The notes: generated by a model from the sequence alone, not told the origin. DNA of 64,000 nt from Candidatus Bathyarchaeota archaeon (GCA_963702095.1 OY969706.1:992001-1056000), one strand, 5' to 3'. Shown: positions 9,014 to 63,077, counted from the stretch's first letter. Made by a program: numbers and translations.

Positions 9014-9104
9014 CTTTTCACTTTCAGGGGGAGGTTAAGCCGAACTAAAAATCATTGAAAATAAAGAGGCGTATTTTTAGGGGATAATTAACGTATGCTA
9101 AGCA

Positions 9105-9410: not shown

Positions 9411-9419
9411 GTTTATAAC

Positions 9420-9440: not shown

Positions 9441-9462
9441 TAATTAACTGGTTTGAACAAGC

Positions 9463-28593: not shown

Positions 28594-28597
28594 CGTT

Positions 28598-36098: not shown

Positions 36099-36480
36099 TT
36101 GTTGCTTCCCCGTATTGTTTACGGTGAGTTTTTCGCTCCGATGGTCGAAGCGCATACTCATCCTCTAGTTTAGGCTGTTTGACATTTAAATTCAACTCAA
36201 AACGCGATGATAGCTTTTGCATCTCTAAGATGTCAGTTTTTAGCAAGACAAGTCCTGAAGCTTTGGCGTCGCCGCCATGTAAGGTTGGAGATTCATCGTC
36301 GTGATCCCATGTTAGGGTTATGTATTGCTCGCATTCGTAGACCAGCCAACCCACTGCCTTTCTAATTTGTGGCTTCATGGCGACAGCTATTGCTCGATTA
36401 TAGAGGACATGGTCAACGTATCGAACGCAAACAAGCTCTTTAGATTCATTAAGCATACCCTTCAAGGACTCCTCTTGCAA
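36088..36480 (-). CDS. hypothetical mobile-element protein
   Basis: ORF overlapping the integrase start; VRYVDHVLY...VGWLVYE. Confidence 0.55.
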   Translation of the reverse strand: MQEESLKGMLNESKELVCVRYVDHVLYNRAIAVAMKPQIRKAVGWLVYECEQYITLTWDHDDESPTLHGGDAKASGLVLLKTDILEMQKLSSRFELNLNVKQPKLEDEYALRPSERKTHRKQYGEATNDR

Positions 36481-38826: not shown

Positions 38827-39561
38827 TTTTTAAAGCCTCAAAAACCTCAATTTAGCCTTCTTTTAACCATAAAATGAACGGTTATTAACTTTTTGTCAGG
38901 TATCTGTACTAAGGATTTTACGATACCTTTTTCGGTGCACCTCTATTTTTAGCTTGTAACAACAACTTCACTTGAGAAGAAGAAAAATCGATTTTTTTCC
39001 AGAAATCAGTATTTTTTCTTCTTTCATTCTTGTTTGCCATGCTACAGCTACGGTTGACGAAAACACGTTACACCGCAGTCAAACTGTTAGGGATGCGGTC
39101 TGCTAAATCTTAAGGAGGTGTTTTCCATGTTTTCTCGCAATTTCTCGCAATCATAACTAAACGATTAGTGGAGTCAACGCTTAGTTCTCTTTTTGTCTTG
39201 CCCTATGCATTTTTTTCTTCTTGACTTAAGACCGACCTAAAGAACGCAGGCATTTTCTTAGTAGAAGAAGAAACAACAGTGCAGCAACCTTCTTCTTCTC
39301 TTAAACAGGTCAAAGTTCAAAAGAACAACAACAAACAATGTGCAAATGTTGTAGTTCTACTGCTTAATAGGTGATTCAGTCGATTTTTCTTCGTTGTCCT
39401 GAGCTTTGATTTATGACAAGTGTTTTATGCCTTATCGACTAACAATTGGCTAATATCAACAACAATAGAGCGCAGACTAAACATGGAAGCACATTCTGTT
39501 AGAACTAATCTGGATAGTCATCTGTCAATAATTGTGCTATCTGCCAATCGGAGGATTTTTG

Positions 39562-42450: not shown

Positions 42451-42451
42451 T

Positions 42452-45400: not shown

Positions 45401-46294
45401 CTAGGGGAAGAAATTAGTGGAACATGGAACGCCAAGTTTCACAGAGAACTTCACCTTTCAGATGACAAGGATATTATACAAACCAAACAAACGCCTCTAA
45501 GGATATTCGAGGGTAAGATGATTCATCATTATTATTACCTATATGAAGAGCCAAGATTTTGGATGTTAGAAAAGGATGCCCTTGATTTCTATGCCCATTG
45601 GGGCTATCAAGCTTGGAAGGAATACCGCCTAGCCTACAGGTTGGTTGCAAGCAGCACAAACGAAACTACCCTAATTACAACAATAATACCCAAGGACGCT
45701 GCATCGGTGAACTCCTTAATGATTTTAGAAGTTCATAGCTTGAAGGCAAAGAACTTGGTTGAGAACATATCAGAAAGTGAACAATGCTTCTTAACGGCTC
45801 TTATGAACAGTTTTGTGATGAATTACATTTTAAGAAGAAAAATTAGCGCAAATCTGAGTGCGTTTTATATTTATCAATTGCCAATACCGAGGTACAAGGC
45901 TGGAAACTGGTTTTTTGATCAATTAGTATGTCGTTCAGCACGACTTATTTGCACCACAGATGAATATGCCGAGCTTTGGGCAGAGGTGTATAGAACAACT
46001 TGGAAAAATATTTCACAAGACCTAACCAGCGAACTTGATGATTGGTCCATCTTAGAACCGAAGTGGACTACCAACTGTGGAGTGCAAGGTTGGGATGAGA
46101 CAAAGCACGATATAGGGAAACGAGCTCAACTCCGCTGTGAAATTGATGCTTTTGTTGCGCATTTATTCAAATTGACTGAGCCTGAGCTAAAGTACATCCT
46201 TTCAACTTTTCCTATAGTCAAAGAAAAGACCCCTTGGTTGATAGATGGCGTGATTAGAGAATACATCCGTTTATCTAAACATCTTAAGACTTAA
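42452..46294 (+). CDS. N6-adenine DNA methyltransferase with fused target-recognition domain (Eco57I/DrmMI-like)
   Basis: GSYYT, DPACGSGAFL, GVDLNP, GNPPW; FFHWEFEFP. Confidence 0.9.
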   Translation: MRKNPLKNMSAHGGIITSEFLETIQGENVKNPRVEPQCFAAFNQPTPTKDKRELGDKIANSFKLLLERWDAISLRYQKMSVSEARSKWMVPLFKELGFDPDFRREEIVVGGDDKLRFRLSHRGWSSELAPKIHMVAPAQDLEEASDGGEGEVVRRGRTRSPHDEMQAYLNVTKGLKWGIVTNGILLRVLREYFHTTTKGYVEFDLENIFRERSFTDFRAMYRLVHASRFLPDQDGTSPLEQFYKESVAAGVKVGEDLRKNVKKAIEALGNGFLTPELTKKMIEDEEFCKAYYAELLRVIYRLLFLLFAEQRAMLPTKGSLYIEEYSITRLREMAETRHGKDDHHDLWEGLRVTFHMLKKGCLPLKVFGYNGSLFDDAELSILSQQQCKNEDVLRAIRNLTLVEEERVLKRINYLDLGVEEIGSIYESLLDFAPRVFDKEQEIDEENVPSNTFFLDPRGVARKSSGSYYTHPRLIDELIKSALKPVVDDKIANVVDKQNALLSVKVCDPACGSGAFLIAANNYLSRELAKLRTGQAEPSDKEVKKATREVLQHCIYGVDLNPMAVELAKVSLWINSCVEDMPLNFLDHHIKCGNSLIGSNSELLSKGIPDKAFDPVGEEDKTISKRIKLQNSIQQKDKLLSEFGIGTIEAKKEAQEYASLSELAEKSSEDVDAKKSKYIALVKSPEFLKEKEVANCWTSAFFCPLNKEAPQPPTQGILRSIQLRGLTSIHKETANMIEKLSKDYSFFHWEFEFPDVFLGEGKGFDCIIGNPPWDKLIKNSDEFFNFYVPDYRAQNNRDKKRLQEELCKDNVILKRWLECDNYFSHTTKFFVQSDAFVYQGSGTINAFKLFIEKAYQICGLNGRIGLLVPSGVYTDEGCTELRKLLFDKTKLEYLLCMENKQKIFPIHSSFKFVVLVTGKGGPTEEFSAGFMIHDLDVLSNLKENGLRIPVRLVKRFSPDTLSVMEFASQEEIMLMEKLYGDIPLLGEEISGTWNAKFHRELHLSDDKDIIQTKQTPLRIFEGKMIHHYYYLYEEPRFWMLEKDALDFYAHWGYQAWKEYRLAYRLVASSTNETTLITTIIPKDAASVNSLMILEVHSLKAKNLVENISESEQCFLTALMNSFVMNYILRRKISANLSAFYIYQLPIPRYKAGNWFFDQLVCRSARLICTTDEYAELWAEVYRTTWKNISQDLTSELDDWSILEPKWTTNCGVQGWDETKHDIGKRAQLRCEIDAFVAHLFKLTEPELKYILSTFPIVKEKTPWLIDGVIREYIRLSKHLKT

Positions 46295-46348
46295 GTGCTG
46301 ATACCTCTAACTGTTGTTAATCAGAGTAACGCTAGAAGTGTTGAAAAA

Positions 46349-49300
46349 ATGAATCCATTTGAGACTCTATCGTACGTTCAAGATACCTATAGAACATATG
46401 TCTATACTTTTCAGAAGATAAGAAGCCCTAAAATCGAAAAATGGGTTCAGGACAAGATTGCTGAAGGTACTCTTCTTTGGAAAGATCCCTATATTCAGCT
46501 TAACCGTCGTTTTGAGCAAGGCGATTCGTTACAAAAGTTAGTAGATGAGGGTATTCTTCATAGAGGAGTTCTGAAGATTTTTTCAAGGAAGGAGGCCAAT
46601 GGACAGCTAACAGGTAGCCCTATCCTTCCTTACAAGCATCAGAGTGAAGCCATTCTTTCTATATTAAGGGACAATGCAAATACTCTTGTTACTACGGGGA
46701 CTAGTTCTGGTAAGAGCTTCTGCTTTGGTATTCCAATCGTTAGTGAATGCCTTAAGATGCGCGACCAGGGCTTGAGTGGGATTAAGGCGATTATTGTTTA
46801 TCCTATGAATGCTTTGGCTAATAGTCAGTATGAGGATTTTGCGCTGAGGCTTCATGGGTCTGGTTTGAAGATTGGGCTCTATACGGGCGACACTAAGAAT
46901 AGTCCTGATGAGGCGAGGGCAGCGCTGAAAATGGCCACTGGCAGAGAGGAACCATATGATAGCGAGCTTTTGTCCAGAGATGAGATTCAAGCTAACCCAC
47001 CGGACATACTCATGACCAACTATGTCATGTTAGAACTGCTTTTGACACGTTTTGAAGATAGAAAACTCTTTCCTAAAGACCAACGTAGCCTCAAATTCCT
47101 TGTTTTAGATGAGATTCATACTTATTCAGGCAAAAAAGGCGCCGACGTGGCCTGCCTAATCAGGCGGTTGAAACAGCGCACTGGTACAATTGGCAAACTA
47201 CGGTGCATTGGCACAAGTGCGACCGTTCAAAGCGAAAAAGGAGAGAGGGGCGAAGAGCTCATCGCTGATTTTGCCAAGACTCTCTTTAGTGAAGATTTCC
47301 AGCCAGCACACGTCATAGGAGAACATTACCTCAAAATATCGCGACCTAGTGCTGACCCGCTGCCCTCAGCCATCCATGTAACAAATGAAATGCTTGAGCA
47401 TTTTGATGGAACTCTCGAAAAAGCCATCGCGTTAACAGAAGCATTAACTGGAAACCCCGTAGCCGACCAGGACAAAACAGCAGAAGGCATAGGCAAAATC
47501 CTCTCTGCCCAGCAAACGGTGCAGTTCCTTGAAGACAAACTCTCAGAAAACTCTCAATCGCTAGTAACTATTCTCAAAGAGTACAAGGAACGGCATCGAC
47601 TTAGCTTTTCAGAGGAAGACGTCGCCAAGGAGCTAAAAGCGGCACTATTAGCCGGATCAGTTGGAATGGTGGAGATCCTTGGCAGCCAACAGCCCAAGTT
47701 TGTCCCAAAAATCCACACATTCTTCTCACAGGGCAAAACGATCACAACCTGCCTAACTAAAGACGGACCACACCTAAACGAACGCGGAGAAAGCACCTGC
47801 CCAACCTGCGCTAAAGACCAAAAAACAAGAGCCACCTTTCCCCTCAACTTCTGCCGAGCCTGCGGACAAGAATTCTACGGCGCCACCATAACAGAAGACA
47901 ACACGCTTTACCCCCGAGACATTGACATGGTTGAAACTCAAGGAACTAACGCTTACCTACAGATAGGAACTTTCAATGAGGAGACTGTTCCTTTTCCAGC
48001 AGAATGGTACGATAAAGAAGAAAAACAGCTTACAGCAAAACATGAGGAAGCAAGACCCCAAAGAGCGATCTACTGTCCAAGTTGCAACAAGATATACGCA
48101 ACATGCAGCTGCAAAGACCGCTTGGAAGTAACAGTTGTTCCATCGCCGTTTCTTTTCTGCCCCACGTGTGGAGTTTACTACGACAAGAGGTCAAGAGAAT
48201 TTAGTAAACTGTTCACGTTTGGCTCAATCGGCAGAAGCACAGGAACCGACGTTCTGGTGTCAAGCGTGGTTTCAAAGCTTAACCCAGACGAGAGAAAATT
48301 AATCGCGTTCTCGGACAGCCGCCAAGATACAGCTCTCCAAGCTGCTCACATGAATAATCTGCAGAAAAGAATCCATTTCAGACAATCACTCTACTACGCC
48401 CTAAAAGACAACGGCTACATCGAAGGTACAGACAAAGCCCTCGACATTAACCAAACAGGACTTAAGATATTCAAAACTATGGAGAACAATGATGTTATCC
48501 CAGATTATGCAAGGGCAAGAGGCAAATACGTCAAAACATCGGATGCCGATGAGGCGTATCAACGTTATCTAGAATACAACGTAGTCTTAGACCTAGGCTC
48601 CTCTACAAGAAAGAATCAAAGAAACCTCGAAGAAGTCGGATTAGTCCAGGTAATCTATAATGGACTTGAAGGTCTATCCCAAGACGAGGCGCTATGGAAA
48701 AAAATCAACCCCCTCGCAACCCTCTCACCAATAGAGAGACAAGACTATCTGAGCGGTATTCTAGATATTTTTAGAAGTAAACGCGCAATAAGCCACAAAG
48801 ATGTCCTCAACCAACGAGAATTTAGAAATGAAATCATTTCTAAATTAACTGAAGAATGCCAATTTGACATAGGTGCAGAAGCACCTGGTACCATAATGGG
48901 CTACTCAGATACAGCACGCAAAGGCGACAAAACCAAATATGTGCTGAGGATAACTGGACCGAAAAGCCGACTTATGATATGGACACAAAGAGTCCTGGGC
49001 TTAAGCCGCGAGGAAGCTGCTGATCTGCTAAACCAAATCTTCAGCATTCTATCCGATAAAGAGCTCCTACCCATATTGGCTTCGGTACCCGTCAAAGGAT
49101 ATAGAGGCATATCTCTTGGCGAAGTCTACATGCTAGACAGCCAATACCTCCAGCTCCAAGCCCTAAACAAAACCAAACATAAAATATGCCCAAAATGCGG
49201 CTTACTACACCACCGACAAACCATAGACATCTGCACAGACGTCAATTGCGGACAACTAGAACAAAGAGACTTTGAAAAAAACTATTTCAGAATAGCCTAC

Positions 49301-51604
49301 TCAAAACCGTTCAAAGACACCGTCCCAATTCAAGCTCAAGAGCATAGCGGTCAACTAGACGGTGACGAAAGAAAGAAGATTGAAGCAAAATTCCGCTCCC
49401 CAAACGACCCTCTAAACGTTCTTGTTTGCACACCTACCATGGAGCTGGGCATAGACATAGGCGACCTATCGGCAATTTACATGAGAAACGTTCCTCCAAG
49501 CCCAAGCAACTATGCCCAACGAGCAGGACGCGCAGGAAGAAAAAACCAACCCTCAATAATCACGACCTTTTGCGGAAGCGGCATTGCGAGAGGACCACAC
49601 GACCAATACTTCTACCGGTTCCCCGAAAAGATCGTTTCCGGAAAGATAACCTCACCCAGATTCATGCTAGACAACAAACAACTCGTAACAACACACCTAC
49701 ATTCACTTATCTTAGAAACTATGGAGACTAAACTCGAAACAGGCATAGGCAAAATCTTAGACCTAAACGAACCAAACTACCCCATGCTACCCGACTACAA
49801 AAACAGCCTATCAAAAAAAGTAGCAGATGCAAAACAAAAGATAACAGAATCAGCAAAAAGCGCCTTCTCATTAGAAATGACAGTTTATCCCTGGTTTACA
49901 GAAGGATTCGTCAACCAAACCATCGACTCATTTTTGGATCATTTTGAAAGCGCACTGGAATACTGGCGAAAAGAATACGCAACCCTTGACAGAGAACACC
50001 AGGACTTAAGCGCCAAAAACAGAAAAGAAGGCCCTTCAAGCCAGGACAGAAACCGTATTGAAGCCATAGCCCAAAAACTTATGAACATGAGAGACGGCGA
50101 AAAAGACTTCTACATATACCGCTACCTCTCAGCGCAAGGATTCCTGCCAAACTATGGCTTCCCAAGCAGCAATATCACCCTGTCACTGAGCGAATCAGAA
50201 AACGAAATCCAAAGAGACAACGTCATAGCCCTCTCAGAACTTGCCCCAGGGAACACCATCTACTACCAGGGAGCTAAATACCAAGTTGCATATGCCAGAC
50301 CAAAAGTGATGAATCAAAAACCCGTCAGAGAATACCTGCTCATCTGCCCCAACTGCCAAAACGCCCTAAGAGGTGAGATAGCTAAAACCGCTGCGGCATG
50401 TCCAAAATGCCAAAAACCTCTAACCGGCGAGCACCCAAACCCCAACGCCATGCAACTACCCGACATGTACGCAATACGCAGACTAAGAATCACAAGCGAC
50501 GAAGAAGAACGCATGCGACTGGGCTATCAAACATCGACACACTACCAAGCCAGCGACAAAATCAACGAATACGACGTAACCACCCCCAACGACTTATCTT
50601 TAAAGATACTCTATGAGCACAACGGACAAATTATCCACTTAAACAAGGGCACAACCAGAAACCAAGAAGATGGACAAGACGCAGGATTTGTTCTCTGCTC
50701 AGCCTGCAACCGATGGTTATTTGGCGACGACCGAATAGAAGACCACATCAACTCAGATTCAAACTCTCACTGCCCCAAAAACGCCCAAGAAGAAGACATA
50801 ATCAGAGGCATTGAACTCTTCACAGTAGGTACCCACGACGTGGCAACCCTAAAAGTTCCACCACCCAAAAACCTCACACAAGACCAAATACAACCCTACT
50901 ATCTCACACTCCAAGAAGCACTGTTGCAAGGCATGCAAATCGCACTCAACTTAGACGACAGCGAAATCGACGGCTTCATAACCCAGGAGGTTATTGACCC
51001 CTCAAGATATGATATAATTCTCTATGAGACTGCAGGCGGTGGCACAGGCGCCATTAAAGCTCTAACTTCAACACCCGGATTTACAAATATTGTAGGGAAA
51101 GCAAGAGAGCTCCTCCACGAACACGACCCCACTATTGGATGCAACAAAGCATGCTACGAATGCCTACTAAACTACTATAACCAGCGTGACCACGAAAAAC
51201 TCGACAGAAACCTAATCCTACCAACACTAAGACATCTCGAAAACGCAAGAACAACTCACATTCCACCCCCGAACAATGAACAAAAACTTGAGGAACTATC
51301 CAAAGCATGCGACTCAGAACTTGAAAGGACAGTACTCAATAAAATAATTGCTGAAGGTCTTCCACTGCCCGACGAAGCGCAACACATAATATACGACAAA
51401 GACGTGCGCATAGCAAAACCCGACTTCTACTACAAACAACAAAACATCGCACTATTCGTAGACGGCCCCGCGCATGAAGAAGACTATGTAAGAAAAGACG
51501 ACGAGGAGAAACGAAAGAAAATACGCGCTTTAGGTTATAGGGTGTTCGTAATTCATCACTCAAACATAGAACAAGGAATTGACAGCCTAAAACAAGCAGT
51601 GTAG
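46349..51604 (+). CDS. YprA-like DEAD/DEAH helicase with DUF1998-like Zn domain and C-terminal Vsr-like nuclease
   Basis: TGTSSGKS, PMNALAN, DEIH, SAT, MELGIDIG, QRAGRAGR, GGTG..CxxACYECL, PDFYY..FVDGPAH. Confidence 0.88.
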   Translation: MNPFETLSYVQDTYRTYVYTFQKIRSPKIEKWVQDKIAEGTLLWKDPYIQLNRRFEQGDSLQKLVDEGILHRGVLKIFSRKEANGQLTGSPILPYKHQSEAILSILRDNANTLVTTGTSSGKSFCFGIPIVSECLKMRDQGLSGIKAIIVYPMNALANSQYEDFALRLHGSGLKIGLYTGDTKNSPDEARAALKMATGREEPYDSELLSRDEIQANPPDILMTNYVMLELLLTRFEDRKLFPKDQRSLKFLVLDEIHTYSGKKGADVACLIRRLKQRTGTIGKLRCIGTSATVQSEKGERGEELIADFAKTLFSEDFQPAHVIGEHYLKISRPSADPLPSAIHVTNEMLEHFDGTLEKAIALTEALTGNPVADQDKTAEGIGKILSAQQTVQFLEDKLSENSQSLVTILKEYKERHRLSFSEEDVAKELKAALLAGSVGMVEILGSQQPKFVPKIHTFFSQGKTITTCLTKDGPHLNERGESTCPTCAKDQKTRATFPLNFCRACGQEFYGATITEDNTLYPRDIDMVETQGTNAYLQIGTFNEETVPFPAEWYDKEEKQLTAKHEEARPQRAIYCPSCNKIYATCSCKDRLEVTVVPSPFLFCPTCGVYYDKRSREFSKLFTFGSIGRSTGTDVLVSSVVSKLNPDERKLIAFSDSRQDTALQAAHMNNLQKRIHFRQSLYYALKDNGYIEGTDKALDINQTGLKIFKTMENNDVIPDYARARGKYVKTSDADEAYQRYLEYNVVLDLGSSTRKNQRNLEEVGLVQVIYNGLEGLSQDEALWKKINPLATLSPIERQDYLSGILDIFRSKRAISHKDVLNQREFRNEIISKLTEECQFDIGAEAPGTIMGYSDTARKGDKTKYVLRITGPKSRLMIWTQRVLGLSREEAADLLNQIFSILSDKELLPILASVPVKGYRGISLGEVYMLDSQYLQLQALNKTKHKICPKCGLLHHRQTIDICTDVNCGQLEQRDFEKNYFRIAYSKPFKDTVPIQAQEHSGQLDGDERKKIEAKFRSPNDPLNVLVCTPTMELGIDIGDLSAIYMRNVPPSPSNYAQRAGRAGRKNQPSIITTFCGSGIARGPHDQYFYRFPEKIVSGKITSPRFMLDNKQLVTTHLHSLILETMETKLETGIGKILDLNEPNYPMLPDYKNSLSKKVADAKQKITESAKSAFSLEMTVYPWFTEGFVNQTIDSFLDHFESALEYWRKEYATLDREHQDLSAKNRKEGPSSQDRNRIEAIAQKLMNMRDGEKDFYIYRYLSAQGFLPNYGFPSSNITLSLSESENEIQRDNVIALSELAPGNTIYYQGAKYQVAYARPKVMNQKPVREYLLICPNCQNALRGEIAKTAAACPKCQKPLTGEHPNPNAMQLPDMYAIRRLRITSDEEERMRLGYQTSTHYQASDKINEYDVTTPNDLSLKILYEHNGQIIHLNKGTTRNQEDGQDAGFVLCSACNRWLFGDDRIEDHINSDSNSHCPKNAQEEDIIRGIELFTVGTHDVATLKVPPPKNLTQDQIQPYYLTLQEALLQGMQIALNLDDSEIDGFITQEVIDPSRYDIILYETAGGGTGAIKALTSTPGFTNIVGKARELLHEHDPTIGCNKACYECLLNYYNQRDHEKLDRNLILPTLRHLENARTTHIPPPNNEQKLEELSKACDSELERTVLNKIIAEGLPLPDEAQHIIYDKDVRIAKPDFYYKQQNIALFVDGPAHEEDYVRKDDEEKRKKIRALGYRVFVIHHSNIEQGIDSLKQAV

Positions 51605-51652
51605 CATTTCGACGTACAGTACTAAATTATCGCTCAATTGATACTAAAAGCC

Positions 51653-51994
51653 TCATTTTAAAGCATACTCGTATCTAGGCTTCTTTAACGAGCCAATATT
51701 TTTCTTAGCCATTCTTCCTTCAGAAACAAGTTTGCCAATTGCATTTCTTACAACATCGCCATAATTTGGCCCTCTTATTTGAAAGGCATCAATGAAATCG
51801 CGTGTCTCCAAATCCATGCGGCCCATCTTAAAGGCTACCTCTGGAATCCTTGCCAGGAGCACCTCCAAAACGTTCCCTGCTCCAACTATTCTTTTATCGC
51901 CGTCATACATCACTGTCGTTGAAAGTACTTCTCCGGTTCGGGCATCTTTAAGATATTTACGGTCCAAATATGAAGATGACATTACAATCGTCAT
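51653..51994 (-). CDS. small hypothetical protein, possible winged helix
   Basis: VRNAIGKLVSEGRMAKK...PRYEY C-terminus. Confidence 0.45.
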   Translation of the reverse strand: MTIVMSSSYLDRKYLKDARTGEVLSTTVMYDGDKRIVGAGNVLEVLLARIPEVAFKMGRMDLETRDFIDAFQIRGPNYGDVVRNAIGKLVSEGRMAKKNIGSLKKPRYEYALK

Positions 51995-52107
51995 CTTCTA
52001 TTATCCATGTTATCCTAATTACACTTTCCCAACTCAGCGGTGGGACGTTGGAAAGTTTTAAAGACCTAAACAGGAAATAAGAGAACGTCTGAGCGGGGAT
52101 TGCATTA

Positions 52108-55100
52108 ATGACTAAACATATTTCAGTTAGACTTTTGTGGCATGATAGTGGTTGGAATGGTTGCATCTGCAAAAACCCTTCTAAGAACACTTACTGTTAT
52201 GCAGACAAATCGGTTCCTATAGTCAAACTTAAAGAAGACAAGCAAGATCCAACGTATCTGAACTGGGAAAATAAGAATTCAGGTAAATGCTGTACCGAAC
52301 TACAGAATCTTCCACGCTGCACCTGGTCCATAAACGCATTCTCACCTACAGAGGTAGATTTCATTCACATAGCCCAGCCATTCATGAAAATAGGCGATCC
52401 CGGAGTTCGAGACTTCCCCGAAAAAATGCAGCCATATTCGATGGGAACATGGAAATTCGACGATATGTACCCTACAAGATACAAAGGATTTGAAGACGTA
52501 AACATTTACACACCTTTTTATGTTAGTCAAAGAGAAGAGCTTTCCCGCAAATACTACGAACAATTCAAAAATGGCAAATCACTAGTCTTCACTTATTTGA
52601 ACACTGATAACCCACTGAATGACGAAAGAGAAACATATGTCCTTGTCGGAGTTTGTAAACTCAAAGAAGTAGGCCAACCTCAACGGTGGTCTTTTCAAAG
52701 GAAAGAGAGTAACCAATCATGGGGAGACCTCGTATGGAGTAGGAAAATAATTCAAAGTTATTCACCCAAAGACGAAGGTCTAAGGATACCCTACCAAGAA
52801 GTACTAGAATACCAAGAAACACACCCTAAAGTGGGTAACTTAATCAAACCAATCTTATTTGAAATTGATAACGGAAAAGAAATTGTAAGAAAATTCAAGT
52901 ATGTTTCAAGAGACCTCACTGACATAGAAGCATCTTCAATAATACAACAACTTCTCCCAATTGTTCGGATACTCAAAGAATATCAAAAGAAATATGGTAT
53001 TTGCCCTGAGATAGATTGGGAACGGAAAGAACAATGGTTAGGCGAAATTCTAGCAATAACATACAAGGAAAGGAGCAAATATCCTGGACTTGTAGCAATT
53101 CTGGACTGCTTACATTTTGATAATGCCTCTTTTTTCTTTAATGATGTACTCAGACCTAAAGAAGAAAAGGGCGAAGATATTCAAGAATATGTACGAAAAA
53201 TGCTGGAAACAGCCAAAGCTCCTAAACCATATTTAGAAGCAGCCAAAAAAGCCACAAAGTATTGGAAAAACAGTTACACAGATGAAGAAAAAGAATTCAT
53301 GTTAAAGATTCTTTCACTCATAGATTTGAGGGCTAGGGTTACCTTCGAGAGCGAAGAAGGTACAAAGGAAGTTATAAAAAACCAAGTTGAAAAAATAGTG
53401 GATGAAGATCGTGCAGAGATAGCAGGCATCGTATCTTCCTTGGAAGCACTTAAGAAAAACCCTTTCTTGATTTGTGAGGAATACCAAGGTGAAGACCCAG
53501 ATGACTTCATAACCTTTGACAAAGTTGACGCAGCATTCTTTCCCCCTGAAGATTACTGGAAGATCGACCCAAAAATAAAAATGCCCCCCGACGACCCAAG
53601 ACGAGTCCGAGCCAAAATTATTCAAATTCTGAAAAACCGAGAAGCCAACGGCGATTGCTTCCTAAATGTTAAAGAGATTCTCGAGATAATTGAAAGCGAG
53701 GAAGATTTAGCCCAGAAAATCCACATTAATATTCGTGATCTAAAAGCTGAAAAGAAATTTTACGAGGAAAAACTCTACTGGAAACCGGTAGAAGACCAAA
53801 TCTATCTTTATCGTAAAGAAATTCATGAAATGGAAGAATTGATTGAAAATAGCATTCGAAACCTTATCGACGCAAAACAACGACAACTTCCAACCATAAA
53901 TTTTGAAGAACTTTTAAGAAAGCCAGATGACGGGAAATTTCCTAAGGAAAAGCTTGACCAAGTCCGAAAAGAGAAAATTTCAGCTTTACAAAATACTTTC
54001 AAAAACAAATTTTCCGTAATCACAGGGATTGCAGGATCAGGCAAAACGACCCTGATTGAAAAATTAACCCGATTGATCTGTGAAAATGAAAAAGCTGACC
54101 TGAAAAGCGATTTTCTCTTTTTAACCCCAACGGGAAAAGCTGCAATTCGATTATCAGAGGTTGGAAAAAGAGCTTTCACAATCGACTACATACTTAACAA
54201 GTACAACTGGGTAAACCCCAAGTTGGCAAGCGGTTATTCAGAAAATGGCGATCCTCTAAATTTCAAGAACATAGTAATCGACGAAAGCTCAATGGTTGAC
54301 CTTGAAAAACTAGCCGTGCTATTCAAAGCCATAAACTGGAAGAGAATCGAACGCCTAATCATGTGCGGAGATGTAAACCAACTTCCACCGATTGGACTTG
54401 GAAAACCCTTTTTCGACATAATTCAATACTTGAAAAATGACCCTCAATACAAAGACGGAGGCTTCGTCAATTACCTAAATGTCAATTGCAGACAAATCCT
54501 AAGCGACAGTAAAGCCGCTAAACTAGCGGAAGTATTCAAATCATCAGAAGAAGAAGACCCATTTTGGGAGGAAATGATCCTCAAAGTTATCAATGGCTAT
54601 GATGAGGGCGACCTCAAGGTCACCTATTGGGAAGACGAAATGGATCTTCCAGGCCTTATCTACGCAGAAATAGACAAAATAGCTAGACAAGAATTCAAAA
54701 TGCTTCCTGATTGCCAAAAATTAAGGGATTATGAATGCTTCAATCGCTTGGTAGGAGCTCAAAGAGACGAACTAAAAAGAGATTTCAGTTCAGAAATTGT
54801 AAAAGCACATGGCGCAGGTTCCGAAAACAGATATTCAGTCGATTTCTTTCAAATCATAACGCCATACAAGCAAGACTACTTCGGTACGACAGGACTAAAC
54901 TATCAAATCCAGCACAAATACCACGCAGCACTCTGGAGCTTCATACCAAAAGTAAAGCCAGCTCTGTACGGAAGAGTTGACGAGTTCACTCAATTTGACA
55001 AGATAATCCAAATTAAGAATCGCTACCGACAACGGTTCGAATGGGATTTTAGGAATAACCAAAGAGCAGTTACGATAGACTTTTTGGCAAATGGACAACT

Positions 55101-55908
55101 TGGAACTACAAGGGTGCACAAAGATCAGTACGGACACAAATCTCTTCAATTAGAGTACAAAGGCGAAGAAGACAGATTGCTTAAAGCTGATGCGAATTTC
55201 GCCAAATCAAACCTAGAACTTGCATATGTTCTGACCGTCCACAAAGTTCAAGGCAGCCAGTTCAACATAGTATTTTTGATTATCCCTGAAAAAATTGCCC
55301 TAATTAGCAAAGAACTCATTTACACAGCATTAACTCGCCAAATAGACAAATTGGTCTTGCTAATTCAGAAATCCGCTAAATACCATCTGCTTCATGCAAA
55401 GACAAACTCTTCAATTCTGAATCGAAATTCCTCAATATTTTTCCATTACGATGTAAGAACTTCATCACAAGCAATCTGCAGACACCTAATGAATAACCAC
55501 ATACATAGGACCAATAGACTCGACAAAATTGAATTAGTAACATCAAAATCTGAAGCACTAATCGCAAATTTACTGCTCGCGTCTAAAATTCCCTATGAGT
55601 ATGAGCGAGTGCTGGACTGCGCGGATTTCCCAGTAAAACCCGACTTTACCTTTCTTAATGATGAGGGAAAACCATCATTGTATTGGGAACATCTAGGTAT
55701 GAAAGGTGACCCTGAGTATGACGAGAAATGGGAAAGGAAAAGGCAAGGCTACACGAAAAATGGCTACAAAATAATAACAAAAGACGAATTACTGAAAACC
55801 AAAGACTCCAAATGTATTCTAACTACAAAGGAAAATAAGGGTGCAATAGATAGCACTGAAATTCAATCAGTAATTAACGAAATTGGAAAAGTACTTTCTC
55901 AAACCTAA
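52108..55908 (+). CDS. RecD2-like SF1B helicase with C-terminal PD-(D/E)XK-like nuclease
   Basis: GIAGSGKT, DESSM, GDVNQLPPI, TVHKVQGSQF; SKSE..PDFTF..YWEHLG. Confidence 0.88.
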   Translation: MTKHISVRLLWHDSGWNGCICKNPSKNTYCYADKSVPIVKLKEDKQDPTYLNWENKNSGKCCTELQNLPRCTWSINAFSPTEVDFIHIAQPFMKIGDPGVRDFPEKMQPYSMGTWKFDDMYPTRYKGFEDVNIYTPFYVSQREELSRKYYEQFKNGKSLVFTYLNTDNPLNDERETYVLVGVCKLKEVGQPQRWSFQRKESNQSWGDLVWSRKIIQSYSPKDEGLRIPYQEVLEYQETHPKVGNLIKPILFEIDNGKEIVRKFKYVSRDLTDIEASSIIQQLLPIVRILKEYQKKYGICPEIDWERKEQWLGEILAITYKERSKYPGLVAILDCLHFDNASFFFNDVLRPKEEKGEDIQEYVRKMLETAKAPKPYLEAAKKATKYWKNSYTDEEKEFMLKILSLIDLRARVTFESEEGTKEVIKNQVEKIVDEDRAEIAGIVSSLEALKKNPFLICEEYQGEDPDDFITFDKVDAAFFPPEDYWKIDPKIKMPPDDPRRVRAKIIQILKNREANGDCFLNVKEILEIIESEEDLAQKIHINIRDLKAEKKFYEEKLYWKPVEDQIYLYRKEIHEMEELIENSIRNLIDAKQRQLPTINFEELLRKPDDGKFPKEKLDQVRKEKISALQNTFKNKFSVITGIAGSGKTTLIEKLTRLICENEKADLKSDFLFLTPTGKAAIRLSEVGKRAFTIDYILNKYNWVNPKLASGYSENGDPLNFKNIVIDESSMVDLEKLAVLFKAINWKRIERLIMCGDVNQLPPIGLGKPFFDIIQYLKNDPQYKDGGFVNYLNVNCRQILSDSKAAKLAEVFKSSEEEDPFWEEMILKVINGYDEGDLKVTYWEDEMDLPGLIYAEIDKIARQEFKMLPDCQKLRDYECFNRLVGAQRDELKRDFSSEIVKAHGAGSENRYSVDFFQIITPYKQDYFGTTGLNYQIQHKYHAALWSFIPKVKPALYGRVDEFTQFDKIIQIKNRYRQRFEWDFRNNQRAVTIDFLANGQLGTTRVHKDQYGHKSLQLEYKGEEDRLLKADANFAKSNLELAYVLTVHKVQGSQFNIVFLIIPEKIALISKELIYTALTRQIDKLVLLIQKSAKYHLLHAKTNSSILNRNSSIFFHYDVRTSSQAICRHLMNNHIHRTNRLDKIELVTSKSEALIANLLLASKIPYEYERVLDCADFPVKPDFTFLNDEGKPSLYWEHLGMKGDPEYDEKWERKRQGYTKNGYKIITKDELLKTKDSKCILTTKENKGAIDSTEIQSVINEIGKVLSQT

Positions 55909-55924
55909 AAACGGACTTGGAAAA

Positions 55925-58900
55925 ATGAGTGAAGCTATCGAAGGCAAAGCCAGATTTGCAGAAGGACAAAACGTTTTGTACTTAGGCACAAACAAAGTCG
56001 GGACTGTCAACAAGGTAATCAAAGGATCACGAAGCTTTCAATACAAAATAACAATAGATGGAAAAGTTCAAGTCGTCGCCGAACGATTCCTCGAACCTGC
56101 AATAGACACAGAAGAAAACATTATTGAGGATTTCAATTCTGGAAAACTTGGCAATCATGAGGAGTACAGACTATTTCAAACATGGCTGCGCCTTTCAAGA
56201 CCAATCGAAAGCAACCTATACAGTTATCTTGGAAGTAAAACAATTTTCAATCCACACCAATTCAAACCTCTCCTAAGATTTCTGTCACCTAACTCCGAAG
56301 AGAGACTTTTCATCGCAGATGAAGTTGGAGTAGGAAAAACCATCGAAGCCGGCATAATAATAAAGGAGTTAATGGCTCGAAACAGAATAGACTATAGATC
56401 ACCTATCCTAATAGTCTGCCCCGTTTCTTTGGGATCAAAATGGGTCAAGGAAATGAAGGAAAGATTTTCTTATCAATTTCATCTTCACGATGGAAACTCT
56501 TTAAAAAACATGCTAAAAACAACAATAAGAGAGGGAATTCTCCCTCAAGGATACACTTTCTCAATAGCCGGTTTGCAGCTATTGCGGCGAGAAGAATACA
56601 TGACAATGTTAAACGAACTTGATTCAAAAAGAAATACGCCCGTTTTTTCGCTTGTAATAATTGACGAAGCTCATCACCTTCGTAACTCGGAGACAGACAG
56701 CAATGAACTCGGCAACGTTTTGAGCCGTATGACAGAAATGATGCTAATGCTTTCAGCGACTCCACTAAATCTAAAGAACGAGGATCTCTTCAATCAGATG
56801 CACATTTTAAACGAAGCCCAATTTCCCGATCCAACTACATTTGAAACTATGCTTGGTCCAGTCGTGGCACTTAACCAAATAAATCAAATAATAGCAGAAA
56901 ATGAGCCAAATAAAGCTGAAAAAATACTTTCAGTACTTGGACATTTGAGATTAGACCCACTGGGCAGAACAATTCTTTCACACCCAAACGTTAAAGACTT
57001 CACTTGTAGACTGGAAAATCCGGCTCCTTTTTCAACTGAAGAAATAACTTACTTCCAGCGCACTTTCACTTCTTTGAGCCCATTATTTTACTCTTTTACT
57101 CGAACAAGAAAAAGAGAAGCGCTTGATCACCAAATTATTAGAGAAGTTCACGAATTGCCAATTACATTAACTTCAACGGAACAACAATTCTCCGAAAATG
57201 CATTGCAGTTAATTGAACAGTATTACGCTTCATTGGAAAACGAAGATCTTCCAATGGGTTTTATCATGAACATTTATCAAAGAATGGTTAGCAGTTGCAT
57301 TCCAGCTTTGATACAATATCTGAAATGGATGGTTAAAGCCGCTAAAATTCTCGATATAGACGCGAAAAACTTTGAGGAGATTGAAGATGACACTGAAATT
57401 GAAACAGCAGATATTAACATGGCATTTAGTCAAAAAATTTCAAATCTATTAGAGCGAGCAAAAGAAATAGAAAGCGTCGATAGCAAGTATTCACAATTCA
57501 AGTTAATGGTTCAAAAAGTATTAGCAAATCCTGAAACTCCTCAAACAATGGTTTTTTCTTTCTTTGTTAGAACTCTTGAATATTTGAAGAAACGACTCAT
57601 CGAGGACGGCTTCACGGTAGAAGTAATTCATGGCGAAATTCCAATGCAGAGCCAAAATGGAATTCTTGGCAGAGACCAAATAATGACAGCTTTCAAAGAC
57701 GGCAAATATCAAATTTTGCTTTCAAGCGAAGTTGGAGGCGAAGGACTTGACTTTCAATTCTGCCATGCAATTGTCAACTACGATCTACCCTATAACCCAA
57801 TGAGAGTTGAACAACGAATTGGAAGAATAGACCGATTCGGCCAGAAAGCTGACAAAATAATTGTCACCAATCTTTTCATCAAAGGAACAGTTGATGAAGA
57901 AATATACAATCGACTATACAAGCGCATTCGATTAATTGAAGATGGCATAGGCTCTTTGGAGACAATACTTGGGAAAGAGTTGGCTGACCTTCAAACCGCC
58001 ATAATTACAGGGACATTAAGTGATAAACAAAAGGAGGAAATGCAAAGACGCATAGAGGAACGCGTTGCATCAGCAAAATCAGAAGCAGAAGAATTCGAAA
58101 AAAACCGCAAAGAATTACTAAGCGATGATTACCTTTCTGCACCCATTAAACAACTTATCTAAAGGAGACTTCATAAGTCCAAAAGATGCACAAGAACTAA
58201 CCGAGATTTGCCTCTCAAAATGGAAAGGATGCAAATACACTACCGACAGCAAAGGATTACCCCAAATACAAATATCGCCAGAAATCTCAGCAGATCTTAG
58301 AACATTTTCTTCGAGCGCCAGGACGCGAAGGAGGTTATAACGAACTTCATCAATTGATCTCAACTAAAGGTCCAGTCAAAATAATCTTCAATGGGCAAGA
58401 AGCTGAAGAAGAATTCAGATCGAGTCTTTTTATCTCCGACAGGATATTGGTCACGCTTTTTGGTAGAAAAACTCGAACTTGAAAAATCTATTTTCAAAAC
58501 TTTCGGATTTGCCGCATCCGATATTGGTCTTCCAAGTGGGAACTACATAGTTTTCTTTTTTGAGATTAAAATGGAAGGGATTAAAACTGAAATTGAGTTA
58601 TTAGGCATTCCAATAGATATTCGTGAAAATAAAGTTGCAGAAAGCGATTTTAGTGCTTTGCCCAGATTGCTTGCTAATACAAAAGGATCAGACAATTGTG
58701 TTAAAGGAAAAAGTTGACCTTATATCCAATTTGGATTTGGCAATGGCATATCTCGATGACCTACTTGAAGACAAAAGGAAGAAAGTATCAGACGAGAATA
58801 GATACAGAGCTGAAAGCCGAATAGCTGCATTGAGAAAAGGAACCGAAATACGAAATGAACGACTTGAACAACAAATTAAAAATCATATAACTAATAGAAT

Positions 58901-59066
58901 AGATGAAGGAAGAGCTCCAGACGAGAACTATATTCGACTAACCAAATCAAGAATTGAAAAAGAAAACGCAAAACTAACTTACAGTATAATAGATCTTCAA
59001 AAGAGGCAGATGCTAACCTTAGACTATAATTTGCAAGCAATAGCATACGTCAGGGTTTTTGGGTGA
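55925..59066 (+). CDS. SNF2-family helicase; C-terminal part split by about four frameshifts
   Basis: IADEVGVGKT, DEAH, SATP, EGLDFQ, QRIGRIDR; reading continues through ORFs at 58125, 58391 and 58623. Confidence 0.8.
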
Positions 59067-59070
59067 ACAA

Positions 59071-62000
59071 ATGTTTGAAACTTTTTACGATAGAATTCGA
59101 AAAGAAAACATCGGCAAATACGGAACTGAAGTGAGTATATACGGACCGGTTCTACTTGCGAATTTATACAGTGATCGGACCCATTTCTTATACGAAATAT
59201 TGCAGAATGCCGAAGACGCTTGTGAACGCGCAAGAAAAAAAGGATCAATGAAAAAGTTCTTCATAAAATTCTCTTTGCTTCCGGATAGGCTGGAAGTAAG
59301 ACATAATGGAATTCCGTTCGACGAAAACGACGTAAGAGGAATATGTGGAATAGTTGGATCAATAAAAGACAAGAATGTATCCCAGATAGGCAAGTTTGGT
59401 ATTGGTTTTAAGTCGGTCTATGCTTTTACCAATTGCCCAGAAATTCATAGCGGAGACAAGTTCTTCAGCATTAGAGACTATGTTTATCCTTACCCGGTCA
59501 AGGCGTCAGAAGACCTCAATCCTCAGGAAACATTGATAGTAATACGTTTTGATGAGGCGAGTGAAAAGCAAAAGCAAGCACATCTTGAAATTGAGAACAG
59601 ACTAAAAAGGCTTGGTATTAGATCCTTCCTGTTTCTTAAGAATCTGGAACAAATATCATACAATGTAGATTCTACAAATGGAAGTTACGTAAAAAGCTAC
59701 GAAACGAAGATGGGTATCAAAACCGTTGCCCTTAAGTACGTTGAAAACAACGAAGAGAAAACAAAAGAGAATTGGATTATCTTTGATAGGCCTCTGAGTA
59801 AGGACTCAACAAGAAGGCTTGAAATTGGCTATCAGCTAATCTTTGACCCTTCCATAAAGAAATGGAAAATCGGACCTGCAAATGACGTGAAACTATTTGC
59901 TTATTTTCCCACGGAAAAAGAAACTCACTTGAAATTCCTAATTCAGGGTCCGTTCAATACTACTCCTGCTAGAGACAATATACGTGATGACGACTGGAAC
60001 CGAGATTTGATTGCAGATTCTGCAGAGTTTGTCGCGAATAGCATAATGGAGGTTAAGGAGTTGGGCTTGCTAAATGCAGAGTTTCTTAATACCCTCCCAA
60101 TAGAAACAGATTTCTTCACACGTCAAGTGACCCCCTTCAGACCCGTGTACGAAAGCGTAAAAGAAATGCTGTCTTCTGAGGCCCTATTGCCGTCAATTGA
60201 TGGGTCATTTGCCAAAGTCGACCAAGCTTTCATTGCAAGAGGAAAAGAACTACGTTCATTGCTGTCTGGAGAACAACTCGATTTACTCTTCGACAGAAGA
60301 AACAGCAGATGGCTTGATGAAAATATAACTGAAGTAAGGACGCCAGGTTTGTTTAACTATTTGGTTGAAACACTTAAAGTCAACGAATTATATCCGGAAG
60401 CCTTTGCCCGAGTTTTCAGCGAAGCGTTCATAAAAATACAGAGCGATCAATGGGTCATATCGTTCTATACATTTCTATTGAGCCAAAAAGCCCTCTGGAC
60501 TAAACCTTTCTATTCTTACGATAGACCTGGAATCCTGAGAACAAAGCCGATAATTCGCTTAGAAAATAACTCACATGTAACACCTTTCGACGATAGCGGA
60601 TGTCAGAATGCATATCTTCCCCATAAAGATCCAACCGTTAGAACAATGTTTACTAATATTGTGAAAGAAATAATAACGAATGACAACAAAGCTAAAGAAT
60701 TTCTTCAAAACATAGGCATCACCGAGCCAAACAAAATAGACGGAATCTTGGCATTGATTCTGCCAAAATACAATGATAAAGCGATTACTATTTCAGAAAA
60801 ACAGAACATTCAACATGTTTCTTGGATTTTGAAGACCTTAGAAGAAAACGATTGCTCAAAAAAAGATGATCTGTTGGAAAAATTAGCTGATACACCATTT
60901 CTATTGGCTCAAAACGTAGTAGACAGTAGAGAAGAGTACCGAAAACCGTTTGAGATCCATATAGGCGAGGCTACACAGGAAACAGGAATTTGGAAATATT
61001 CTTTCAAGGGAATCAGGAAACGTGGTTTCTCAGTCAGAGATATTTATCACTAGAAAATGACGGAAAATTGATTGACAGATTCAAAAAGCTAGGCTGCAAA
61101 TCAGACATAGTCGCAAAATATAAAAAGCCGAACTATTTGGGCTATGTCATAATCTCTGATTATTTCGGTTATCACAAACGCGGATTCGACGGATTTGACC
61201 CAGATTGTAAAATAGAAGGACTAGAATTCGCGTTACAGAACATTAACCTCGAACGAGCAAGATTATTGTGGCAAGTAACAAAAGAATCTTGCAGATGTAT
61301 ATACGGCGAGGTTGAATCTTGTAGCAGACAAAATTACGAAGGATCAACAAGAGAAAAACAATACTCTGAAATTGGCAAATTGTTAGTGGAATATGCTTGG
61401 CTTCCGGATTCCAAGAACGCTGCTTTTCATAAACCCTCGGAAATTACTATTAGTGACCTTCCTGAGGATTTCGATAAAGAAAGCACCCAAGCAAAATACA
61501 TCTCAGAAAAGCTTGGGATGAAACCTGTTATAGATGAAGAGATAAGATTGATGCTCGAACAAACTCCAGAAGAAGCCAGGGAAATTGTTGAGATCTTCGT
61601 TTCTGCAGCACCTGAAATTAAGCAGCGCATCCTAGAAACCATCCGCACAATTAGACGTTCCGAGGTAAAATTGGACGATCTAAACAACTCTGATGGAACA
61701 GCCTCTACATTTATTGTATCGCCTTCGGTAAATGAACTGGAAACCGAGTTCCAACAAGCTTTGACGCTAGAAAGGCAACCGACGGTCGACTCTGAGGACA
61801 GGACTTGGAGACGCCCAACTCCTGAACAAGAAGAGAAAATGAAGCAATTTGAAGAAGAGACAATTGGCGAATTATCAAAAAGAACTCAAACTATATACAT
61901 AGAAAGAAACGAGGTAAGTCAGATTAGAACTGAGGGAGAAAAGGAACAGGAGCTTAAGCAATTCTTACTTGAGCAATACAAAGGCTATTGCCAGGTCTGC

Positions 62001-62351
62001 AATACAAGGTTGGATCTCGGAGGCGGCAAAGATCCATATTTTGAAATTTACCGCATCATTGAAAAGCGTCGAAAGGTTGGAGCGTGGAGCGACTTGGAGT
62101 TCAATGTTCTTTGCTTATGCCCCAACTGTCATGCTCTCATGAAATATGGCGGAAGAGATCTGGCAATTCTTTTCGACAAAGCTAATCTTGCAGCAAAGGG
62201 TGAGGTTGCACCTGAAGAGGTAAAAGAAAAAGGTGGAGATTTCTACATAGTCCCAATAACAGTAGCCGGAGAAGAAAAGGAAATCTTTCTTGCTCCCTTA
62301 CACATGGCAAAAATTTCGGCCTTTGTGAAAATGCTTTCCAGTCAAAAGTAA
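59071..62351 (+). CDS. sacsin-like GHKL ATPase with C-terminal HNH-like domain; frameshift at ~60970
   Basis: EILQNAEDA, HNGIPF, IGKFGIGFKSVY; C-terminal CQVC...NVLCLCPNCH. Confidence 0.82.
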
Positions 62352-62603
62352 CATTCGCTCGCTTCAAATCTTTCCGGATCATCACATATGTCAGTTTACA
62401 CCCTTGCATTTATTTTGAGTTTGCTATGTTATGGTCCCAGAATAATTTGCAATTTAATCGATATAGTTGACGAGAGGAACTAACTTCTGAGATTGAATCT
62501 ATAATTTATCCTCTTAAACGTTATTAATTTAGGCTTTGTCCTTCATTTGGTAAAAGACCGTTTATGGAACTTGTGAAACTAAAACATTTGTTTCATAGCA
62601 AAA

Positions 62604-63077
62604 ATGAAATACAAGATAGCATTCACTCATCAATCGATTAATATGATCGATGAGAAGAAAATATGTATTTTTTCGTTATCGGAAAAAGACCCTGCGTTTA
62701 GTCATGGAGGCATGGAAAATGCCAAGAATTGGCTCTTAAATAAAGGAGAAAAGCCATATTATTTCAGAGAAACAAAACCTAAGGAATTAACTCCTGGCTC
62801 GATTGTTTTATTTTCGTTTGATGCACGAATCTTCGGTCAAGCCATTGTTAAGAAGGCTCCAAGGGAGGTCAGTCAAAAGGAGCAAGAAAATTGGCGGGAG
62901 ACTGGTGGTATAGTCTATAAGTACTACATGGTTCTGGAAGGCCCAAGCATAGAAGTATTTAGATTTCATCCTTCCAAAAGGGACATTGAAGAAAAATTGG
63001 ATTTACGTTTTGCACAGCTTTTTACATACATAAGTGAAAATAATTACCGGGAAATTCTAATGATGACGAGAAGATAA
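62604..63077 (+). CDS. EVE/PUA-like domain protein
   Basis: KELTPGSIVLF...IFGQAIV pattern; ends TYISENNYREIL. Confidence 0.5.
   Translation: MKYKIAFTHQSINMIDEKKICIFSLSEKDPAFSHGGMENAKNWLLNKGEKPYYFRETKPKELTPGSIVLFSFDARIFGQAIVKKAPREVSQKEQENWRETGGIVYKYYMVLEGPSIEVFRFHPSKRDIEEKLDLRFAQLFTYISENNYREILMMTRR

Follow-up and report, generated by a model that had tools for sequence, protein, structure and literature searches.

We analysed a 64,000-nucleotide (nt) window of DNA from a Candidatus Bathyarchaeota archaeon (GCA_963702095.1 OY969706.1), comprising positions 992001–1056000 of a 2.94-Mb single-contig genome; all coordinates below are counted from the first letter of this window. The genome matches the archaeal small-subunit ribosomal RNA model end to end (1489 bits), and the nearest relative of the locus is found in a Bathyarchaeia metagenome-assembled genome. 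The system in question consists of three large genes on the plus strand. The first encodes a PDC-S68-type protein of 1266 amino acids (aa; 52108–55908), identified by a full-length match to the PADLOC model PDLC05066. It is followed by SNF2b, a DrmD-type SNF2 ATPase (55925–59066; PADLOC DrmD PDLC02623, 1e-119), and by a Tiamat-like sacsin/GHL ATPase (59071–62351; TmtA PDLC03972, SACS and sacsin matches). A small gene of 157 aa on the same strand, at 62604–63077, has 46 homologues and a predicted PUA-like fold (ASCH/EVE/YTH). With ATG starts, the intergenic gaps are 16 nt (55908 to 55925), 4 nt (59066 to 59071) and 252 nt before the small gene. An earlier note on this DNA had described three large co-oriented ATPase genes 4–16 bp apart, a small PUA-like gene behind them and no methyltransferase (MTase) of their own. 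These observations are confirmed, including the last one, as Pfam, PADLOC and NCBIfam scans found no MTase domain in any of the four genes between 52108 and 63077. The description of the set as undescribed does not hold: PADLOC names all three large genes (PDC-S68, DrmD and TmtA), and the main text of a recent preprint from October 2026 (10.64898/2026.09.30.754977) outlines the type. The 2.94-Mb genome contains no second copy of any of the four genes, nor of the 503-nt spacer that precedes the first.

Two of the three large genes are interrupted in the window. SNF2b is read in five frame segments, owing to four one-base insertions near 58141, 58297, 58409 and 58693; its open reading frame (ORF) pieces are 55883/55925–58162, with an alternative TTG start at 55883, and then frame-shifted pieces to 59066. 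The Tiamat-like gene contains a single one-base deletion, with a frame switch at about 60970 and ORF pieces at 59059/59071–61053 and 60990–62351. An intact Thorarchaeota orthologue (L090, 1218 aa, 59% identity) is colinear with SNF2b through all five frames, which implies four frameshifts in this gene. Similarly, the homologues P0063–65 (1173–1191 aa, 56–59% identity) are colinear with the Tiamat-like gene across its two frames. The indels were also checked on 57800–62700 against Logan contigs that stem from four public metagenome runs in three studies and are 94–99% identical; runs X5–X16, with less than one fifth of the words, were left out. The contigs of the other samples have one letter fewer at each of the four SNF2b positions and, in three runs, one extra letter at 60970. 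SNF2b and the Tiamat-like gene are therefore in frame in sister populations. None of the window's five indels occurs in the contigs of these runs, and they would reflect either errors of the assembly or decay of recent date. In favour of assembly errors, a class I aminoacyl-tRNA synthetase gene present in single copy (21204–23493, plus strand) is also split, into two ORFs, by a +1 shift near 21690. The four SNF2b shifts lie within 560 nt, and divergence rises to about 6% in 57893–58780 versus 1.6–4% elsewhere, which could likewise reflect decay, or a strain-variable stretch that is poorly resolved.

The domain content of SNF2b and of its downstream partner agrees with the SF2 remodeller and GHKL ATPase of the earlier note. 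SNF2b matches the Pfam families SNF2-rel_dom (2e-21) and Helicase_C (5e-22), and its intact relatives are 983–1244 aa long. The orthologues L090 (59% identity) and L084 (56%) align with that PADLOC DrmD model over its whole length. The ATPase domain of the Tiamat-like protein is recognised by PF25794 SACS (4.9e-15) and by the NCBIfam sacsin ATP-binding domain (76.3 bits, cut-off 50). The GHL motifs are present as the N-box EILQNAEDA and the G-box GKFGIGFKS, and the invariant residues E46, N50, D53 and G111/G114/G116 are kept in the window. The catalytic motifs are intact in the GHL ATPase (N-box and G-box) and in both helicases (Walker A and B). The DUF3684-type core is covered by TmtA PDLC03972 (2.9e-68) over profile positions 33–620 of 1302; in the intact homologue P0063 the match extends over 33–805.

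The C-terminal part of the Tiamat-like protein carries no DUF3883/NOV_C PD-(D/E)xK nuclease match in the Pfam scan. It contains a CQVC...N...CPNCH block (CxxC...N...CxxCH), which is HNH-like and lacks the first catalytic His; of the proposed sacsin-HNH architecture, the sacsin ATPase is therefore confirmed, and the HNH end only as a degenerate form. The Cys-rich tail of about 75 aa found in the closest homologues, P0063–65, has no counterpart here, and AT-rich non-coding sequence occupies 62352–62603. A truncation peculiar to this genome was considered but is the less likely explanation. A sister-strain contig appears to stop at the same codon (30 loose letters), so that loss of the tail is more likely a lineage trait. 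A complex prediction for the C-part of the Tiamat-like protein with the PDC-S68 N-domain gave a score of 0.00 and speaks neither for nor against binding.

PDC-S68 is matched by PDLC05066 (2.2e-237) over residues 1–1235 against profile positions 1–1187 of 1202, and two further PADLOC PDC-S68 models also match at full length (1e-212 and 1e-201). The protein is laid out as a barrel (residues 1 to about 290), a helical subdomain extending to about residue 440, a RecD2-like HHH region, a superfamily 1B (SF1B) helicase core and about 130 C-terminal residues. Pfam assigns AAA_19 (2e-23), AAA_30 (4e-20) and UvrD_C_2 (3e-11). The core contains the Walker A motif GIAGSGKTT and the Walker B motif DESS; both are conserved, as are motifs III, V and VI. 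The score on the NCBIfam RecD2 model TIGR01448 is 222 bits versus a cut-off of 500, which makes this helicase a relative of RecD2 and not RecD2 itself. The SF1B helicase and the HDSGWNGCIC motif of its N-domain (residues 12–21) were thus correctly noted from the beginning; the nuclease depends on an E...PD...EH motif and weak matches, described below.

The N-domain was modelled from its N-terminal 445 aa with 28 sequences (pLDDT 80, the predicted local distance difference test). The fold was searched with VIA-align against the top 1000 chains of Foldseek and, independently, against 48,161 representative chains with no prefilter. Foldseek alone gave weak rows (E 0.05–0.4). The best match is the YTH domain of Mmi1 (Z 6.5–7.0, root-mean-square deviation (rmsd) 2.9–3.0, 122–125 aa; in the search without prefilter, Z 6.5 over 122/134 residues), followed by the EVE protein PH1033 (Z 6.4), THYN1 (Z 6.4), VcaM4I (Z 5.8) and ZmASCH (Z 5.5). 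Thirteen of the 48,161 chains reach Z≥5, and all are YTH, EVE, ASCH or the N-terminus of DrmA; unrelated rows begin at Z 4.5. The model thus predicts a PUA-like β-barrel with insertions, spanning residues 1 to about 290. Seven residues do not vary (R8, W11, C21, N27, C30, C71 and W210), and four more are almost invariant (H12, D13, W16 and G18); a metal site and a pocket for binding may be built from these conserved positions. A PDB sequence search with the N-domain profile returned nothing below E 0.1.

The DrmA match, to the N-terminus of the DISARM protein in the DrmAB structure (PDB 7s9w chain A, residues 13–127), involves the N-domain encoded at 52108–53050 and has Z 5.5 with an rmsd of 3.6 over 113 aa. 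Judging from the predicted structure, the two domains may share a common sensor fold.

The C-terminal region contains the motif SKSE...PDF...WEHLG, in which E1149, D1179, E1194 and H1195 are invariant. PADLOC gives weak matches to PDC-S69 (1e-4) and HEAT_CxxC_PD-DEXK (7e-3). Pfam searches with the C-terminal 170 aa of 19 homologues found no significant family (PF14811 at 0.006–0.08 in four of them), and no PDB sequence came below E 0.1 in a search with the last 167 aa. Atlas offers DUF559/MTES_1575 (0.79) and DUF2726 (0.77) as leads only. From the motif, we consider this domain a putative restriction-endonuclease-like nuclease. The idea that it corresponds to the DUF3883 nuclease of canonical Tiamat was dropped, as an hhalign comparison of the profiles gave 0.2% probability.

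The linkage of the three genes was surveyed from both sides. On the Tiamat side, 26 of the 80 loci examined have a SNF2b homologue directly upstream of the Tiamat-like gene and in the same orientation. In 20 of these 26 pairs, the coding regions overlap or lie no more than about 20 nt apart; the pairs come from bacteria of more than 12 phyla and from an Asgard archaeon. The C-parts of the Tiamat-like proteins in the pair loci resemble the HNH-like part of the protein in the window. Neighbour clustering of the pairs, five of which are on loci too short to show their flanks, identified PDC-S68 as the sole family recurring beyond two related Latescibacterota genomes. A full-length PDC-S68 is present in two pair loci, 28 nt after the Tiamat-like gene in L096, and divergent with a NERD-UvrD helicase between in L138. 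In two others, an ORF consisting of the PDC-S68 N-domain only follows the Tiamat-like gene directly (L139, 12987–14507, 506 aa, PADLOC PDC-S68 3e-114; L091, 13044–13601, 185 aa, PADLOC PDC-S68 2e-66); these are either truncated genes or true stand-alone domains. Other third genes of the pairs are NERD-UvrD, HARE-HTH-Mrr (L091), an MTase with an AAA_15 ATPase (L099) and DrmA-like with MZB/DrmB-like genes (L121). Across the modules of the three large genes, there is no recurrent MTase.

In the Nostoc locus L121 (13216–19029), two DrmA/DrmB-like genes come after the pair, encoding a helicase of 1326 aa and an MZB/DUF1998 protein of 609 aa, an arrangement that echoes the DruE-like gene found upstream in the window.

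The survey from the PDC-S68 side covered 26 loci with a full-length relative, three of whose copies are frame-shifted. PDC-S68 adjoins a Tiamat-like protein in six of them (L005, L006, L008, L009, L014 and L026), in five cases co-oriented and with gaps of -4 to +35 nt. The Tiamat-like proteins of these six loci, TmtA by PADLOC, are fused to an SF1 (AAA_11/12) or SF2 (ResIII/Helicase_C) helicase. When both surveys are combined, 8 of the 31 other full-length loci have a Tiamat-like gene directly adjoining PDC-S68, and in six of these eight the genes are co-oriented and overlap or are at most 35 nt apart. Among 400 further archaeal genomes of the phylum, four carry PDC-S68 (L021 is one); in two it stands alone, and in one it lies by a DEAD helicase and an MTase-like gene. 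A Tiamat-like gene was found in none of the 400 (E≤1e-20). On a tree of 29 PDC-S68 proteins, from which three broken and two partial copies were left out, the Tiamat context is scattered. The starred branches of this tree require at least five changes, indicating that the association of PDC-S68 with Tiamat-like genes arose or was lost repeatedly. Shuffling the context label gave values as low in 344 of 500 cases, so the label shows no clustering beyond that of shuffled ones. Co-occurrence elsewhere, proposed earlier as a check, thus holds for the SNF2b/Tiamat-like pair and for PDC-S68, but not for the small gene.

The relationship to Tiamat can be judged from the main text of the preprint cited above (10.64898/2026.09.30.754977). 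According to this text, the Tiamat of B. cereus is an ATPase that nicks double-stranded DNA and cuts single-stranded DNA, and Tiamat is present in fewer than 5% of proteomes from prokaryotes. Among the Tiamat-like proteins it describes, Type III has the nuclease swapped for helicases, and in Type IV-A, found in bacteria and archaea, an HNH-like fold without catalytic residues replaces the nuclease. The commonest neighbours of Tiamat-like genes are helicases, often fused to nucleases, including in the Type IV-B neighbourhood. The protein in the window shares with the Tiamat of that text the N-terminal sacsin/Hsp90-like GHL ATPase with intact motifs, the DUF3684-type core and the helicase(-nuclease) neighbours, and its HNH-like end corresponds to Type IV-A as outlined there. 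In contrast, it has no PD-(D/E)xK/DUF3883 domain and is therefore not Tiamat in the strict sense; it also has a conserved SNF2 partner, whereas Tiamat is a stand-alone single gene. Since the same text reports HNH-like Tiamat-like proteins with helicase(-nuclease) neighbours, the trio is a variant of a recently outlined kind. The terms RecD, PUA and YTH do not occur in the main text of the preprint.

PDC-S68 itself can be compared with type IV enzymes. Like VcaM4I (EVE-HNH), the T. gammatolerans McrB (reader N-domain) and SauUSI-type enzymes, it would join a barrel for reading to an NTPase or helicase and to a nuclease, with no cognate MTase; the reader domains of VcaM4I and McrB are among the fold matches. 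PDC-S68 differs in that its helicase is SF1B of the RecD2 type and its barrel, which contains large insertions, has a set of conserved Cys/His residues. By analogy, this architecture appears in line with modification-dependent type IV restriction. The name PDC-S68 was not found in a literature search, and the accessible part of PMC6765204, on PUA/EVE and RecD proteins, does not describe a PUA-like reader joined to RecD.

Upstream of the trio, also on the plus strand, lies a second module. It comprises SNF2a, a DrmD-like protein (39532–42450; PADLOC DrmD 6e-123), an N6-adenine MTase of DrmMI or type IIG-like character (42413–46294; PADLOC DrmMI 2e-91, and Pfam) and a DruE-like helicase of the DEAD type that carries an MZB/DUF1998 domain (46295–51604; PADLOC DruE 8e-138, and Pfam). 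The 503-nt spacer (51605–52107) separates the DruE-like gene from PDC-S68 and contains an antisense ORF of 113 aa with no family match (51653–51994). Several features recall class 1 DISARM: SNF2a and SNF2b are both DrmD-type, the MTase resembles DrmMI, the DruE-like helicase has the DUF1998/MZB domain of DrmB, and the predicted PDC-S68 N-domain resembles the DrmA N-terminus. However, SNF2b (303.7 bits) and SNF2a (457.6 bits) both remain below the cut-off of 610 of the NCBIfam DrmD model (NF038317), the upstream module has no PLD protein DrmC, and the functions of DrmA and DrmB are fused in a protein resembling DruE of Druantia. In the downstream trio, MTase, DrmA and DrmB are all missing. Thus, the trio is not DISARM, and the upstream module is only DISARM-like.

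Our proposal is that the three large genes make up an anti-virus module of Tiamat-like type within a defence island of this archaeon, a reading to which we give about an even chance of being correct. Its conserved core would be the translationally coupled pair of a DrmD-type SNF2 DNA translocase and a Tiamat-like GHL (sacsin/Hsp90-type) ATPase, in which the usual PD-(D/E)xK nuclease would be replaced by a degenerate HNH-like DNA-binding end. PDC-S68 would be a recurrent but facultative third partner, which also occurs alone and beside MTase systems; by its domains it may work as an enzyme in its own right, in which a PUA-like reader precedes a RecD2-type 5'-3' helicase and a tail that is putatively a nuclease. 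From how the genes are built, the families to which they belong, their recurrent linkage, their folds and the intact ATPase motifs, we infer the activities, the physical complex and the target as follows. The GHL ATPase would clamp or sense invading DNA in an ATP-gated manner, and the SNF2 motor would move along the duplex. The PUA-like pocket of PDC-S68 would then read a base or strand feature, and PDC-S68 would unwind and cut the DNA, supplying in trans the nuclease lost by the HNH-like Tiamat type. A dedicated MTase would not be needed. Self-protection could arise either because the target is a foreign modification or structure or through the neighbouring DISARM-like MTase module. The trio would accordingly be an ATP-driven, MTase-independent system for nucleic-acid degradation, with GHL as the clamp, SNF2 as the motor and PDC-S68 as the reader-helicase-nuclease. 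The earlier note had inferred modification-dependent or self-independent restriction complementing the upstream MTase system. This interpretation is partly supported: the predicted PUA-like folds of the PDC-S68 N-domain and of the small protein fit a reader, but the nearest relative places PDC-S68 within the upstream MTase operon.

Several observations weigh against this proposal. Two of the three large genes are out of frame in the genome of the window. PADLOC lists PDC-S68 as a single-gene candidate; its PUA-like N-domain and its Tiamat-like and MTase contexts are added here. The match of the N-domain fold is middling (Z 5–7), and the putative C-terminal nuclease has no significant family or structure match in the searches above. 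The experiments reported in the preprint text cover only the single-gene Tiamat of B. cereus. Only 4 of the 26 SNF2b pairs have PDC-S68 (two full-length, two N-domain only), and about 12 of the 31 other PDC-S68 loci adjoin housekeeping or mobile genes with no large partner. Finally, the closest relative (L001, 76% identity) keeps the order SNF2, MTase, DruE-like gene and PDC-S68 with a 20-nt gap before the last, and has neither SNF2b nor a Tiamat-like gene.

The last point leads to the best-surviving alternative, in which PDC-S68 serves the upstream DISARM-like module as its effector, a nuclease-helicase in the place of DrmC, and the SNF2b/Tiamat-like pair is a separate two-gene system that landed downstream. 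In L001, the DNA similarity to the window ends at 55866, and unrelated, Lamassu-like genes follow on the opposite strand. Elsewhere, PDC-S68 ends tight operons with an SNF2 protein and a type ISP-like MTase (L010 and L011) and adjoins type I restriction-modification (R-M) genes (L006, L007, L015 and L032) or helicase and MTase genes (L016, L029 and L175). The pair, for its part, lacks PDC-S68 in 22 of 26 loci. However, the spacer with its antisense ORF, which is missing from the syntenic L001, splits PDC-S68 from the DruE-like gene in the window, where SNF2b starts only 16 nt after PDC-S68. R-M genes are also common in defence islands, so that this context is less specific than the Tiamat-like one, and an upstream effector would leave the N-domain-only ORFs behind Tiamat-like genes (L139 and L091) unexplained. 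PDC-S68 is located between two modules, each of which is accompanied by PDC-S68 elsewhere. We favour the link to the Tiamat-like gene as the more specific, given that Tiamat-like genes, in contrast to R-M genes, are rare; the link to the upstream module has to be taken seriously as a rival, although we consider it rather unlikely.

In the tight operon of L010, a 1251-aa protein (6217–9972) with a weak match to reverse transcriptases (RVT_1, 3e-7) is encoded between PDC-S68 and the type ISP-like MTase.

A second alternative is that three independent systems, namely a single-gene, type IV-like PDC-S68, the SNF2b/Tiamat-like pair and the DISARM-like module, were packed together by island clustering with no functional coupling. 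The frequent occurrence of PDC-S68 alone and its scattered neighbour context on the tree would fit this, as would the further defence-type genes in the window. The region from about position 26 kb to the window end looks like a defence island. On the minus strand, a cluster at 27679–31923 comprises an SNF2 ATPase (659 aa), a 449-aa protein with no family and a protein with an Mrr_cat nuclease domain (376 aa), and a tyrosine integrase gene lies at 34656–36161, also on the minus strand. The cluster and the integrase suggest that the island starts well upstream of the trio; a tRNA scan of the window for island boundaries found no tRNA. The gene of the Mrr_cat protein overlaps its neighbour by 211 nt. 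The linkage data weigh against independent packing: Tiamat is rare, both by the proteome figure in the preprint text and by the 400 phylum genomes without a Tiamat-like gene, yet a Tiamat-like gene is the immediate neighbour of PDC-S68 in about a quarter of the loci (8 of 31), mostly in a tight, co-oriented arrangement. We regard this explanation as improbable.

It is also conceivable, though speculative and in our estimation unlikely, that PDC-S68 is a plug-in effector, with a PUA-like domain for sensing, RecD as its motor and a nuclease for cutting, which is recruited by varied ATPase platforms, and that the whole of 39.5–62.4 kb is one composite DISARM-Tiamat machine. The platforms would be nuclease-less Tiamat-like proteins, either helicase-fused or SNF2-paired, and DISARM-like, type I or ISP-like R-M modules. 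In a composite machine, the MTase module would mark self, and the Tiamat-like/SNF2 pair would pass unmarked or oddly modified DNA to PDC-S68. If PDC-S68 is a plug-in, the free-standing N-domains of L139 and L091 would represent its docking or sensing piece.

The small gene most likely lies outside the system as a bystander. Its start is probably Met14 (62643), and its homologues are about 145 aa long. It has no Pfam match, and Pfam EVE was not detected at E≤0.01. The structural model (pLDDT 90) gives 19 Foldseek matches at E≤0.001, led by ZmASCH (8e-6) and including TgMcrB-N (8e-5), YTH (8e-5), the EVE protein Atu2648 (1e-4), THYN1 and VcaM4I, with TM 0.56–0.61 for ASCH, EVE and YTH structures; the nearest Atlas cluster is named EVE (score 0.96). 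The predicted fold is thus PUA-like, and EVE, ASCH and YTH are all compatible with it. A four-gene operon, in which this protein serves as the modification reader of the complex, is very improbable and already largely refuted: the PUA-like fold and the co-oriented position 252 nt downstream would suit it, but the gene occurs at none of the 26 PDC-S68 loci and none of the 26 pair loci, its sole genomic relative (L164, 48% identity) lies amid metabolic genes (Hdr/MvhD-like, radical-SAM and pyruvate:ferredoxin oxidoreductase), the sister-strain contigs X1 and X4 depart from the window sequence directly behind 62350, at the Tiamat-like stop codon, and PDC-S68 has a predicted PUA-like domain of its own. 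Of the four-gene operon of the earlier note, the linkage of the three large genes is what recurs elsewhere.

Returning to the Tiamat-like module, several of its features may be new: the strict pairing of the HNH-like Tiamat type with SNF2b, the repeated partnership of PDC-S68 with Tiamat-like proteins across fused and split helicase forms, the predicted PUA-like sensor domain of PDC-S68 with its free-standing copies, and an archaeal example beside a DISARM-like module. A nuclease-less platform that recurs with an SNF2 motor and, by prediction, a reader-helicase-nuclease makes a division of labour between sensing, motor and cutting functions testable. The PDC-S68 candidate of PADLOC gains a predicted sensor domain and a set of partners, and Tiamat-like systems are extended to Bathyarchaeia and Asgard archaea.

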